Virus record (IMG/VR): IMGVR_UViG_2925908680_000001
Origin: a virus
Taxonomy: Duplodnaviria > Heunggongvirae > Uroviricota > Caudoviricetes
Length of the DNA stretch: 64,000 bases
Direction: 5' to 3' (one strand)
Shown: positions 26,343 through 46,989 of the stretch, in pieces
Position numbering within the stretch: the first letter of the stretch is position 1
How the letters are laid out: the number at the start of each line of letters is the position of its first letter
The notes under the pieces: generated by a model
Told to the model about the DNA's origin: nothing
The model's input: the letters and a program-made list of their open reading frames with translations, nothing else
Databases searched by the model: none
Translations under genes and position numbers: made by a program

Positions 26343-26446
26343 AATACTGACTGTTGCGCCCTGGCATTATCGTGGGGTATATTTCTACGGCACCTTAGAA
26401 AAACGGGTGCCGGGATTGGAACCCCGGATAATGCAAAAGGCGACAC

Positions 26447-26470
26447 AGACGCCGAAAGCGTCTTTTTTTG
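26447..26470 (+). terminator. Rho-independent terminator
   Basis: gacgc-cgaaa-gcgtc followed by ttttttt. Confidence 0.65.
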
Positions 26471-26499
26471 TGTCATGCCATCGCACAGCCATACGTAGC

Positions 26500-26625
26500 G
26501 TTTAGCTCAGAGATCAATGGTAGTGCTGGCTGGGCTGCCGAAAGGCAGGCCGGTTCCCTTTTGCGCCGGTAGTTCCAACCCAGTCAGTGCTACCGCCATT
26601 GAGATTGGAACCTCACGCGGTAGCT
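26500..26625 (+). ncRNA. Putative c4-like antisense RNA / target region of immunity module 1
   Basis: Structured leader upstream of icd; ggttccaa segments complementary to ttggaacc near the icd RBS; by analogy to P1 immI. Confidence 0.3.
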
Positions 26626-26654
26626 CCTTAAATTAGCAAAAGGAGGCTGCCAAT

Positions 26655-26870
26655 ATGGCTACTATCCCTACCCCAACTCATTCTGAATTTATCTGGCGTT
26701 TCTATTCCTGCCAAAAACACCTGTATATCTGCGTCATGGCTGCTACCGAAGCAGAAGCTCGTTCATACCTTCCTGAAGAACCCTGCATTTTTGCCGCACG
26801 CTTCACTCTTGATGCGATGGAGATCCTAAATTACTGGAATCTGCCAATGAACTGCGTGGAGGTGCACTGA
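26655..26870 (+). CDS. icd: Icd-like host cell division inhibitor
   Basis: 71 aa; immediately precedes and is coupled to the antirepressor gene (TGATG overlap), as in P1 immI. Confidence 0.65.
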   Translation: MATIPTPTHSEFIWRFYSCQKHLYICVMAATEAEARSYLPEEPCIFAARFTLDAMEILNYWNLPMNCVEVH

Positions 26871-27811
26871 TGAATCTGTCCATCTCTCAAAAAGCGACAA
26901 TGACCAGTATTGAGATCGCGGAACTGGTAGGTAAGCGTCATGATAATGTGAAGCGTACCATTGAAGTATTAACTAAAGGTGGTGTCATTCAATTTCCTCA
27001 AATTGAGGAAATTGAAAATAAACAATCAGTTGGCCCTCGTCGATTTTCCAAGGCTTACATATTTGAAGGCGAACAAGGAAAACGAGACAGCATCATTGTC
27101 GTCGCGCAGCTCTCTCCGGAATTCACCGCCCGGCTGGTGGACCGCTGGCGCGAACTGGAGAATGCCCGGGTACAGTTAAAATCAAAAGCCGAAATTCTGG
27201 CTGAAATGGCGCAAATGCATCTTGAGCATGAACGCCGGATCAACGCCGTAAATGCCCAGGTAGCCGAGGTATCAGCACAAGTATCGATGGTCGCTGAAAC
27301 ACTCGAGCAAATCAAGAAAGGCAATATTCCGGAAGGCTACATTGGCTACCGCCAGCTGGCGGCGAAATGTGGCCTGACTGAAGCCAAATGTCGCAACCTG
27401 GTTAACGCTTTCCGGATTCCCACCGATACGCATGAGTTTTTAACTCCAGATGGTTTGCTTGCGCGACGCTCCATTGTGGCCCTGGTCCCCTTCCGGAAAG
27501 CCTTTAAGCAGGTGATGTCGGAGGCAGAACCACGCAATAAACGCTGGTATCATCCAAAGATGGGGATGTTTCAGGCAATCCACCATCCTGTGCCTGAAAG
27601 CCCAAAGGATAATCTGTCACTACATACCGTCAGAGAGAAGATCAGGACTGGATACGCAACAGTGTGTCGTCGTTCTTCCTGGCCTGAAGGTATATGGGTG
27701 TGGCCCGAAGGTGGATCACGAAAGCACTGGCGCACCATCCGTGACGGGAAAATCCATGCTATTGATTTAGCTCCAGAGGATGTTATTGCTATGGACTGGA
27801 TTGTTAGTTAA
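26870..27811 (+). CDS. ant: Antirepressor (Ant-like) with Rha-type N-terminal domain
   Basis: N-terminus MTSIEIAELVGKRHDNVKRTIE; 313 aa; paralog at 45623-46549. Confidence 0.7.
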   Translation: MNLSISQKATMTSIEIAELVGKRHDNVKRTIEVLTKGGVIQFPQIEEIENKQSVGPRRFSKAYIFEGEQGKRDSIIVVAQLSPEFTARLVDRWRELENARVQLKSKAEILAEMAQMHLEHERRINAVNAQVAEVSAQVSMVAETLEQIKKGNIPEGYIGYRQLAAKCGLTEAKCRNLVNAFRIPTDTHEFLTPDGLLARRSIVALVPFRKAFKQVMSEAEPRNKRWYHPKMGMFQAIHHPVPESPKDNLSLHTVREKIRTGYATVCRRSSWPEGIWVWPEGGSRKHWRTIRDGKIHAIDLAPEDVIAMDWIVS

Positions 27812-43261: not shown

Positions 43262-43546
43262 ATGAGTGCAATAGCGACCTGTGACACAGTTTGTTCCGGT
43301 CATGGAGGATTCCCTCCGCGACCTGTAGCAGAAACAGTTTCCTGGTTTACCGTAAATGGAAAGCCAGTTGTTGTAGATGGTGCCATGTTTCCCAGTCACA
43401 CTGACGGTAACAGTGCACATCCAGGGGCAGCTGTATCGACGCGAGTATGGTTTTCGATAGGTGGAAAGGGAGTTGTCTGTGTAGGCGATCCGCTTTCTTG
43501 TGGTTCTGTTATCGCCAACGGCGAGGATATTTTTCAGGTTGCATAA
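43262..43546 (+). CDS. PAAR-domain spike-tip protein
   Basis: 94 aa with PAAR-like pattern CSGHGGFPPRP ... GDPLSCGS. Confidence 0.7.
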   Translation: MSAIATCDTVCSGHGGFPPRPVAETVSWFTVNGKPVVVDGAMFPSHTDGNSAHPGAAVSTRVWFSIGGKGVVCVGDPLSCGSVIANGEDIFQVA

Positions 43547-44881: not shown

Positions 44882-45041
44882 TTACTCCCCTTGTTTAGTG
44901 CCAGAGGACACGCCAGTGCTGTTAAACAAGTATCCGACATACGCTGAACAGTTATTCAGCACGATCGACGAATGCAACCAACGAAACGCACTGAATAACC
45001 AAAGAAACAGGGAGATTTGGGAAGGGGACAGGCGGCAGTGA
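44715..45041 (+). CDS. Rz1-like o-spanin lipoprotein (overlapped architecture)
   Basis: Signal peptide with lipobox LSGC; starts inside Rz in another frame and extends beyond it; RBS gaggaaag. Confidence 0.5.
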   Translation: MKSLALKIRCAVLGLTMCVYLMTLSGCSGNGQKPSTSVPVKITVEATSKPQANLIDYSPCLVPEDTPVLLNKYPTYAEQLFSTIDECNQRNALNNQRNREIWEGDRRQ

Positions 45042-45068
45042 GCTTCACAAAAGCTACATAATTATTTT

Positions 45069-45081
45069 GCGTTAGAAAAAT
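45069..45081 (-). promoter_or_regulatory. Operator-like motif (atttttctaacgc on the reverse strand)
   Basis: Recurring TTTCTAACA-like motif downstream of the spanins. Confidence 0.3.
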
Positions 45082-45289
45082 AATTTGAATTTTCGAACAT
45101 AAATAATAAAATAAATCATCAAAAATTTGATGTTGATCTTCCATGTTTTCAGGCTTATATTCACGCCGTCGTAGCAAATTCTGCGACCGGGTTTAGCAGC
45201 CTGAATGATTGTGCGGACAACCGCAGATTTCCGATATTGCGGTATTTTTGTGTCCGTAAACCGCGTTACGCCCGAATTATGGTGGGGCG

Positions 45290-45400
45290 TGATGGGGAGG
45301 CTTCGGCCTGCTGGTTTCACAATCGCCAGTCTGCTAACCCCGTCACGTCCTGCCACCCGTTTAGCAGCGGGTAGCAGGTTGTTAAACCTGATTGTGAGGC
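45290..45400 (+). ncRNA. Putative c4-like antisense RNA / target region of immunity module 2
   Basis: tcacaatc (45317-45324) complementary to gattgtga (45390-45397) at the icd RBS; ctgctaacc (45331-45339) complementary to gtttagcag (45359-45367). Confidence 0.35.
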
Positions 45401-45407
45401 CGTAACT

Positions 45408-45623
45408 ATGGTTAATGCCAATCCTTGCCCTCGCCCGGAATTTATCTGGCGCTTTTATTCCTGCACAAAACACACCTACATCAGCGTAATGGCAGCTACT
45501 GAGGCTGAAGCGCGTTCATTTCTTCCTACAGATCCGTGCATTTTTGCCGCTCGCTTTAAACCCGATGCTCTGGACGTTTTGACCTACTGGAACCGCCCAA
45601 TGAACTGCGTGGAGGTGCACTGA
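45408..45623 (+). CDS. icd: Icd-like host cell division inhibitor (second copy)
   Basis: 71 aa, about 75 percent identical by eye to ORF 26655-26870; coupled to ant. Confidence 0.65.
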   Translation: MVNANPCPRPEFIWRFYSCTKHTYISVMAATEAEARSFLPTDPCIFAARFKPDALDVLTYWNRPMNCVEVH

Positions 45624-46549
45624 TGAATCTGTCCATCTCTCAAAAAGTGACAATGACAAGTATTGAGATCGCGGAGCTGGTGGGAAGTCGTCATGACAAG
45701 GTGAAACAATCTATTGAACGACTGGCGGGACGAGGTGTAATAGCTTTTCCCCCAATGGGGGAGAAGCCCACCGCAGGCCGCCCGGCGAGCTATTACGTCT
45801 TTGAAGGCGAGCAAGGCAAGCGCGACAGCATTGTTGTCGTCGCACAGCTTTCTCCCGAATTTACCGCCCGACTGGTGGACCGCTGGCGCGAACTGGAGAG
45901 TGCCAAAGTACAGTTAAAATCAAAGGCCGAAATCCTGGCCGAAATGGCGCAAATGCATCTTGAGCATGAACGCCGGATCAACGCCGTAAATGCCCAGGTA
46001 GCCGAGGTATCAGCACAAGTGTCCAGGGTCACTGAAACACTTGAGCAGATCAAGAAAGGCAATATTCCGGAAGGCTACATTGGCTACCGCCAGCTGGCGG
46101 CGAAATGTGGCCTGACTGAAGCCAAATGTCGCAACCTGGTTAACGCTTTCCGGATTCCCACCGATACGCATGAGTTTTTAACTCCAGATGGTTTGCTTGC
46201 GCGACGCTCCATTGTGGCCCTGGCCCCCTTCCGGAAAGCCTTTAAGCAGGTGATGTCGGAGGCAGAACCACGCAATAAACGCTGGTATCATCCAAAGATG
46301 GGGATGTTTCAGGCAATCCACCATCCTGTGCCTGAAAGCCCAAAGGATAATCTGTCACTACATACCGTCAGAGAGAAGATCAGGACTGGATACGCAACAG
46401 TGTGTCGTCGTTCTTCCTGGCCTGAAGGTATATGGGTGTGGCCCGAAGGTGGATCACGAAAGCACTGGCGCACTATCCGAGATGGGAAAATCCATGCTAT
46501 TGATTTAGCTCCAGAGGATATTGTTGCTACGGACTGGATTGTTAGTTAA
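45623..46549 (+). CDS. ant: Antirepressor (Ant-like), second copy
   Basis: 308 aa; C-terminal two-thirds near-identical to ORF 26870-27811, N-terminal Rha-type region diverged. Confidence 0.7.
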   Translation: MNLSISQKVTMTSIEIAELVGSRHDKVKQSIERLAGRGVIAFPPMGEKPTAGRPASYYVFEGEQGKRDSIVVVAQLSPEFTARLVDRWRELESAKVQLKSKAEILAEMAQMHLEHERRINAVNAQVAEVSAQVSRVTETLEQIKKGNIPEGYIGYRQLAAKCGLTEAKCRNLVNAFRIPTDTHEFLTPDGLLARRSIVALAPFRKAFKQVMSEAEPRNKRWYHPKMGMFQAIHHPVPESPKDNLSLHTVREKIRTGYATVCRRSSWPEGIWVWPEGGSRKHWRTIRDGKIHAIDLAPEDIVATDWIVS

Positions 46550-46557
46550 TTACTGTT

Positions 46558-46580
46558 GCCCCGGCCAGGCCGGGGCTTTC
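46558..46580. terminator. GC-rich hairpin between convergent ant and ORF 46585-46989
   Basis: gccccggcc / ggccggggc followed by tttc. Confidence 0.5.
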
Positions 46581-46584
46581 GTGA

Positions 46585-46989
46585 CTAAAAATCTGTTCGC
46601 TGTCGCCATGCGTTTTTTAACTCAGGAATATCCGCCATTTCAATTAACTTGCGAAGTCCAGCACTGACTTTCCCATTGCCAACCATAGCAAGCCAATCTC
46701 TTACTGCTTTCGGCATGTAGAGCGTTGCAGTTACCGGCTCTTCAACCCTGGCAGGACATCCGCATACAGGCCATTTAATTGATTCCATAACTTCGGATGC
46801 CGGGGTGAGGGCGGGGACATTGAGTATATCTCTACCAGAAAACTGGATAACGATCCGTTCAGCGAGCGAGAGTATCTCACTTTCGGCAAGAATTGATGCC
46901 AACTGCGCCTCAACAAGAAAGCGACTTGTTGTGTTCAGAGAGTGGCTCTTAGCGCCATTTTTATACGAAACAAAGATTCGATACGCCAT
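46585..46989 (-). CDS. Hypothetical protein
   Basis: ORF track; operator-like motif directly upstream. Confidence 0.45.
   Translation of the reverse strand: MAYRIFVSYKNGAKSHSLNTTSRFLVEAQLASILAESEILSLAERIVIQFSGRDILNVPALTPASEVMESIKWPVCGCPARVEEPVTATLYMPKAVRDWLAMVGNGKVSAGLRKLIEMADIPELKNAWRQRTDF

Follow-up and report, generated by a model that had tools for sequence, protein, structure and literature searches.

Positions 45133-46549 of the window (the whole 64,000-nucleotide stretch of phage DNA analysed here) very probably form a complete immI operon of the P1/P7 type, with a promoter, an a1/b1 leader, the c4 RNA, the a2/b2 targets, icd and ant, and by homology to P1 and P7 the operon would be a working one. 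We call this region module 2. The original prediction, a P1 c4-type antisense architecture placed on the icd ribosome-binding site, is borne out by (i) matches to the Rfam models RF01695 and RF03163, (ii) the identity of the RNA to P7 c4 and (iii) pairing elements that align with those of P1, and it is further backed by (iv) an Icd-like ORF, (v) an overlapping ant gene and (vi) the comparison of cognate with non-cognate complementarity over 83 loci. The identity of the RNA, its fold, the accessibility of its a' and b' elements, the complementarity and co-variation of the targets, the overlap with the ribosome-binding site and the gene content were all obtained directly. The features of module 2, and of the second module described below, lie on the plus strand.

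Genome context and mosaic structure

Megablast identifies the window as a D6-like, P1-related plasmid prophage, and the flanks of module 2 match Escherichia phage D6 at 98-99% identity. Module 2 (45027-46600) stands where D6 has a 487-bp orf53 segment, with an upfB-like block on one side and the major capsid gene on the other. At least five complete PLSDB plasmids carry both module 2 and a second module, module 1 (26390-27811), about 20 kb apart, the same arrangement as in the window. Elsewhere in the window, a cluster of four tRNA genes (97-342 and 1508-1580; Rfam tRNA, 42-70 bits) is what one would expect of the tRNA region in a P1/D6-like phage. The plus-strand ORF at 43262-43546 goes by the name upfC-like in D6, and its homologue in the plasmid p702_18_3 carries the annotation "PAAR domain-containing protein"; for a phage-plasmid of the P1 type, a PAAR-like spike protein may merit attention.

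The P7-type stretch of module 2 (45148-45483; 94% identity to P7 and 90% to P1) takes in the leader, c4 and the 5' part of icd. The joint lies inside icd, and beyond it the 3' part of icd and ant are of the D6 type. Homology to P1 and P7 begins at 45148 and reaches no further upstream: the P1/P7 C1 operator Op51 (Oc4) and the promoter P51a are not conserved upstream of module 2, and the P1-type C1 operator consensus has no match anywhere in the window when up to 3 mismatches are allowed. Control of module 2 by the master repressor may thus differ from that in P1. As its anti-repressor is not of the Ant1/Ant2 type, the operon is to be read as a mosaic and not as a copy of P7 immI.

The c4 RNA of module 2

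The 77-nt c4 antisense RNA (45281-45357) is 100% identical to the misc_RNA c4 annotated in P7 (AF503408, which together with NC_005856 for P1 supplied the reference GenBank annotations). The Rfam C4 model RF01695 matches 45275-45360 with 70.5 bits against a gathering score of 45; the Rfam scores were obtained once and then reproduced with a local run. In an alignment of P1, P7 and the window, each of the six elements (a1, b1, b', a', a2 and b2) has its P7 form in the window, and the window's differences from P1 are exactly the positions that separate P1 from P7. The heteroimmunity of P1 and P7 has been attributed to those differences (PMC6906374). As read from the six elements, the specificity of module 2 is exactly that of phage P7.

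Folding of both leaders had been proposed as a check, and the c4 RNAs of both modules give stable folds (z -5.7 for module 2 and z -5.1 for module 1). For the 77-nt RNA of module 2, the minimum free energy (MFE) structure has -44.9 kcal/mol, with a 17-bp closing stem around two hairpins; b' sits in the hairpin-2 loop, a' lies in a single-stranded joint, and both are unpaired in this fold. Across nine sequence variants, compensatory (double-sided) changes are found at 12 of the 24 predicted stem pairs of c4.

A 66-aa ORF with an ATG start (45205-45405, plus strand) runs across b1, c4, a2 and b2. It is very likely no gene, since natural variation is limited to the pairing elements, with matching changes at the targets. 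The same ORF corresponds to the historical "c4 protein" CDS that some records still annotate (X15639, and RCS47 as "transcriptional regulator C4").

Recognition elements and their targets

The two recognition elements of c4 each have one target upstream and one downstream. The b' element TCACAATC (45317-45324) is the complement of b1 and b2, and a' (CTGCTAA, 45331-45337) that of a1 and a2. Downstream of c4, a2 (TTAGCAG, 45361-45367) is the exact complement of a' and aligns with the annotated P1 a2, while b2 GATTGTGA (45390-45397) is the exact 8-nt complement of b' and aligns with the annotated P1 b2 GTTAGTGA. The b2 target overlaps the icd Shine-Dalgarno sequence GAGG (45396-45399), and the icd ATG follows at 45408. 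All four strings that the original prediction named in module 2 lie where it had placed them, and its pairing of b' with b2 on the icd Shine-Dalgarno is perfect over the 8 nt. Its second pair, proposed as 9 nt between CTGCTAACC (45331-45339) and GTTTAGCAG (45359-45367), holds for 7 contiguous nt (CTGCTAA/TTAGCAG) and then runs into a C:U mismatch; 7 nt is the length of the annotated P1 a2 site.

The upstream copies of the targets, a1 and b1, were absent from that account. The a1 copy (TTAGCAG, 45193-45199) is again an exact complement of a' and aligns with the annotated P1 a1 TTGACAG, and the b1 copy (GATTGTG, 45207-45213) is an exact complement of b' and aligns with the annotated P1 b1 GTTAGTGC. 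Among 20,000 shuffled versions of the flanks with dinucleotide content preserved, 2 contained both downstream sites, 23 contained both upstream sites and none contained all four. When the whole leader is folded, the MFE structure contains a predicted 16-bp long-range helix in which 45188-45207 (the a1 region) pairs with 45370-45390 (the spacer between a2 and b2). G-U wobble is predicted to let this spacer, GUUGUUAA, base-pair with a1 of P1 as well as with a1 of P7.

A sigma-70-like promoter (TTGATC-17-TATATT, 45133-45161) is predicted by promoter scan at the position of the P1 promoter P1c4 (formerly P51b), where it aligns with the P1 -35 TTGACC and -10 TATAGT. The Rfam c4-a1b1 leader element RF03163, two hairpins presenting a1, matches 45155-45207 with 54.4 bits against a gathering score of 46.7. 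The isrK model also aligns with this leader (45168-45249), at 45.5 bits and so below its threshold of 50; under this sub-threshold match lies a weak, IsrK-terminator-like hairpin (ACCGCA/TGCGGT followed by a U-run, 45220-45249), for which a simple terminator scan made no call. Judged by score and terminator together, the leader of module 1 belongs to IsrK (RF01394) and that of module 2 does not.

Co-variation across relatives

For a comparison among relatives, we assembled 80 Icd-encoding loci from IMG/VR together with P1, P7 and the two modules of the window, 83 loci entering the count. In each, c4 was located by a stem-search script, and the hairpin-2 loop (b') and the joint (a') were extracted. 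The set spans 11 a'/b' combinations, drawn from six b' loops and five a' sequences, and recombinant types are present among the IMG/VR loci (e.g. a P1 b' with a P7 a'). In 82 of the 83 loci, all four targets are perfect complements of the locus's own c4, with lengths of 7, 7-8, 7 and 8 nt. When the flanks are instead compared with a non-cognate b' or a', the longest complement is at most 6 nt, the lone exception being an 8-nt chance match elsewhere in the 200-nt upstream flank. At the level of sequence, this comparison of cognate with non-cognate complementarity confirms that the pairing is under selection.

The plasmid p702_18_3 (NZ_CP074704.1, 2082-2157) has module 2 at the same site, with TCATGTAC as b', GTACATGA as b2 and GTACATG as b1. 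From c4 through a2 and b2 to the start of icd its sequence is that of the window save for b' and b2; upstream of c4, b1 is swapped and the sequence also differs by a 1-nt indel and a small number of further substitutions. Two more plasmids carry the p702_18_3 type and a fourth carries TCGTAAGT/ACTTACG/ACTTACGA. Two Salmonella plasmids, whose records have fragmented ORFs, gave no c4 under the strict stem criterion. Little other than selection for RNA-RNA pairing would readily explain why b', b1 and b2 are replaced in concert, at three sites, when the sequence is otherwise very similar, and immI specificity looks like a swappable cassette.

The icd and ant genes of module 2

The icd gene (45408-45623) encodes 71 aa of an Icd-like cell-division inhibitor with 67% identity to P1 Icd. 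The assignment comes from the NCBIfam model NF033153 (46 bits), Pfam giving no match for Icd. Its 5' part is P7-like and its 3' part resembles D6 and module 1. The ant gene (45623-46549) encodes a D6-type anti-repressor of 308 aa (PHROG 63, anti-repressor Ant, 3e-61). The icd stop and the ant start overlap in TGATG (45621-45625), and ant has a Shine-Dalgarno sequence of its own (GGAGG, 45611-45615). At its N-terminus, Ant has a weak, sub-threshold match to the Pfam Rha domain; BLASTP of module 2 Ant against P1 Ant1 gave no significant similarity (E = 0.19). As this ant is not P1 Ant1/2, the repressor targeted by Ant is presumed to be a D6-type C1.

The ant DNA of module 2 is 94.8% identical to that of module 1 over 45793-46579. 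Between the two ants (26870-27811 and 45623-46549) many 50-nt windows are 100% identical, while the N-terminal approximately 60 codons and the leaders are divergent. Such near-identity over about 790 bp beside divergent N-termini and leaders suggests that the two modules have recently exchanged sequence by recombination or gene conversion. The N-terminal domain of Ant (45620-45914) is Rha-like in the window and annotated as "ORF6N domain-containing protein" in p702_18_3; this swap between plasmids that are otherwise about 98% identical is another mosaic joint within the operon.

Module 1, the native immI region

Module 1 can be identified as D6's own immI: the region is 90.6% identical to that of D6, with annotated Icd and anti-repressor. 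It begins with an upstream IsrK-type RNA (26390-26468; Rfam isrK 62.5 bits against a threshold of 50) that includes a1 (TTGGAAC, 26416-26422; complement of a') and b1 (GCAAAAGG, 26433-26440; complement of b'), and that ends in an intrinsic terminator identified by terminator scan (26447-26463, followed by a T-run). A c4 RNA of the D6 type follows (26513-26600; Rfam C4 76.7 bits) and folds at -46.4 kcal/mol into the same shape as the c4 of module 2. Its b' CCTTTTGC (26557-26564) complements b1 and b2, and its a' (GTTCCAA, 26572-26578) complements a1 and a2. Downstream lie a2 (TTGGAAC, 26605-26611; complement of a'), b2 (GCAAAAGG, 26636-26643), which overlaps the Shine-Dalgarno sequence AGGAGG (26641-26646), icd (26655-26870; NF033153, 49.4 bits) and ant (26870-27811), an ORF annotated as anti-repressor in D6.

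Only one comparable pair had been claimed for this module. The a'/a2 pair is real as GTTCCAA/TTGGAAC, but the string GGTTCCAA quoted for it is absent from the plus strand of c4; and the module has two pairs and not one, the b'/b2 pair CCTTTTGC/GCAAAAGG having been overlooked along with the upstream copies. Between modules 1 and 2, cross-complementarity amounts to one 7-nt run in each direction, with no run of 8 nt or more, and neither run involves an a', a b' or a target site. Because cross-complementarity is minimal and lies outside the recognition and target elements, the modules should have orthogonal, non-cross-reacting specificities.

Proposed mechanism and alternatives

In P1 and P7, the 5' end of c4 is made by RNase P and the operon is transcribed constitutively; c4 bound to a2/b2 blocks icd, and ant expression drops through translational coupling and Rho-dependent polarity. 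The system is annotated in the GenBank records of P1 (NC_005856) and P7 (AF503408), and its mechanism is said to have been worked out by Citron and Schuster in 1990 and 1992, by Biere et al. in 1992 and by Hartmann et al. in 1995. Repression of Ant synthesis by c4 of P1 and P7 occurs in trans (PMC8546580).

If module 2 works in the same way, a constitutive promoter would drive a transcript of the whole 45133-46549 unit, and the 77-nt c4 (45281-45357) would be cut from the leader, as its identity to P7 c4 and the work on P1 and P7 suggest. The b' loop and the a' joint of c4 would base-pair with b2 and a2, respectively, whether on their own transcript or on a sister one, and icd would remain untranslated because pairing at b2 occludes its Shine-Dalgarno sequence. 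Since ant overlaps icd and would rely on icd translation, the anti-repressor would not be made and lysogeny would be maintained. The upstream a1/b1 copies most likely act as an internal competitor, or decoy, for c4, by analogy with the homologous IsrK RNA. We infer the processing, the action in trans, the translational coupling and the role of a1/b1 from these related systems.

Alternatively, the complementarities could act in cis only, as alternative leader folds that hide the icd ribosome-binding site without any diffusible c4, while an IsrK-like a1/b1 RNA activates in trans in the style of Gifsy-1. In the IsrK study, a short upstream RNA activates a read-through mRNA that is otherwise translationally inactive (PMC4825925); an isrK match with a terminator is present in module 1, the leader of module 2 is isrK-like (45.5 bits), and in the predicted full-leader fold the a1 region forms the long-range helix with 45370-45390. 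We nevertheless consider this very unlikely: the RNA is identical to P7 c4, which the P7 annotation and the literature describe as a processed 77-nt repressor that acts in trans and determines P1/P7 heteroimmunity, a property that needs trans action, and no strong terminator lies downstream of a1/b1 in module 2. Pairing in cis, c4 acting in trans and a decoy role of a1/b1 can coexist. It is scarcely credible that module 2 is a mere relic of recombination, a stretch of P7 taken up by a D6-like plasmid and now without regulatory activity: although it is a mosaic that replaces D6 orf53 amid structural genes and lacks the P1 C1 operator, its promoter hexamers, six pairing elements, Shine-Dalgarno sequence, icd and full-length ant ORF are all intact, it occupies the same site in many complete plasmids, and the concerted replacement of b', b1 and b2 points to ongoing selection for pairing. 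Against the P1/P7-type immI reading itself we counted the missing P1 C1 operator and P51a, an ant gene other than P1 Ant1/2, and the a'/a2 duplex, which is just 7 bp long.

Relation to known systems

Module 2 shares with the immI of P7 (and P1) the 77-nt RNA, identical to that of P7, the sequence and spacing of a1, b1, a2 and b2, the position of a predicted P51b-type promoter, the placement of b2 on the icd Shine-Dalgarno and the succession of an Icd-like ORF and an overlapping anti-repressor. It differs in that it lies in a D6-like genome without the C1 operator, P51a or the sim genes, and in that its 3' icd and whole ant are of the D6 type (PHROG 63, Rha-like) and not Ant1/Ant2. Moreover, the immI of P7 and P1 adjoins kilA-repL, whereas module 2 has the upfB-like block and the major capsid gene as its neighbours. 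With the D6 immI (module 1), module 2 has in common the six-element layout, an Icd-like ORF and nearly identical C-terminal two-thirds of Ant; the recognition sequences, however, are unrelated, and the a1/b1 region of module 1 scores as IsrK and has an intrinsic terminator at its end.

The Hfq-binding RNA IsrK (RF01394) belongs to a parallel system outside these phages, the IsrK/STnc1160/orf45-anrP locus of Salmonella Gifsy-1, which has an upstream target-copy RNA, a processed RNA of about 80 nt, a small ORF and a coupled anti-repressor (PMC4825925). In Gifsy-1, the short upstream RNA binds the read-through transcript and turns on the small ORF and the coupled anti-repressor (PMC4825925), which fits a decoy (anti-antisense) role for a1/b1. 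The short upstream RNA is presented there chiefly as an activator; module 2, for its part, has no strong terminator after a1/b1. The Rfam isrK and c4-a1b1 families appear to describe the same kind of element, an upstream decoy copy of the c4 targets, and IsrK and c4 appear to be parts of one system, as in module 1. STnc1160 is placed where c4 would be, and in module 1 isrK, C4, icd and ant follow one another in tandem. The IsrK paper (PMC4825925) neither cites P1 c4 or icd nor connects its locus with c4, and a 2025 review treats IsrK and c4 as separate entries. In the immunity system of P4, as PMC4825925 summarises it, the CI RNA is processed from the leader of its own operon and has complementary copies upstream and downstream (seqA and seqC). 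The P4 system works through premature transcription termination, not occlusion of a ribosome-binding site, and CI is a separate RNA family with no Rfam match in the window.

Significance

The feature is already known: the original prediction was correct but not new, because c4 of P1 and P7 is a classic antisense system, Rfam models exist for it and a second c4/icd region was reported in 2019. The Rfam C4 and a1/b1 models stem from Weinberg et al. 2010 (PMC2864571), and the 2019 report noted that the D6-like plasmid pYU39_89 has a second stretch with homology to c4 and icd (PMC6799933). The finding itself thus carries little weight, as a curated Rfam model detects c4 at once. Its value for annotation is that this D6-like phage-plasmid should be labelled with two immI modules, one of them P7-specific, from which cross-immunity with P7-type phages is predicted at the level of immI. 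The co-variation of a', b' and their targets also makes a clean natural data set that could serve the design of orthogonal antisense regulators, and the same data may connect the IsrK literature with that on P1 c4. What interest is left lies in two orthogonal locks on near-identical anti-repressors, in the turnover of the b' cassette at the second site and in the separate treatment that IsrK and c4 have had in the literature.

Taken together, the observations permit a broader reading, which we put forward tentatively as possible but somewhat short of probable. D6-like plasmid prophages would carry two orthogonal c4-icd-ant locks, a native one of the IsrK type and an acquired one of the P1/P7 family whose b' is swapped between strains (CACAATC, CATGTAC and CGTAAGT), both acting on near-identical anti-repressors; IsrK/STnc1160 (Gifsy-1) and a1b1/c4 (P1) would be a single system, with a1/b1 as an anti-antisense decoy. 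If so, such a prophage would be immI-immune to two lineages at once (here the D6 type and the P7 type), each lock could be opened independently, and the diversity of a' and b' (at least seven b' and five a' sequences, freely recombined) would reflect an arms race over immunity specificity.
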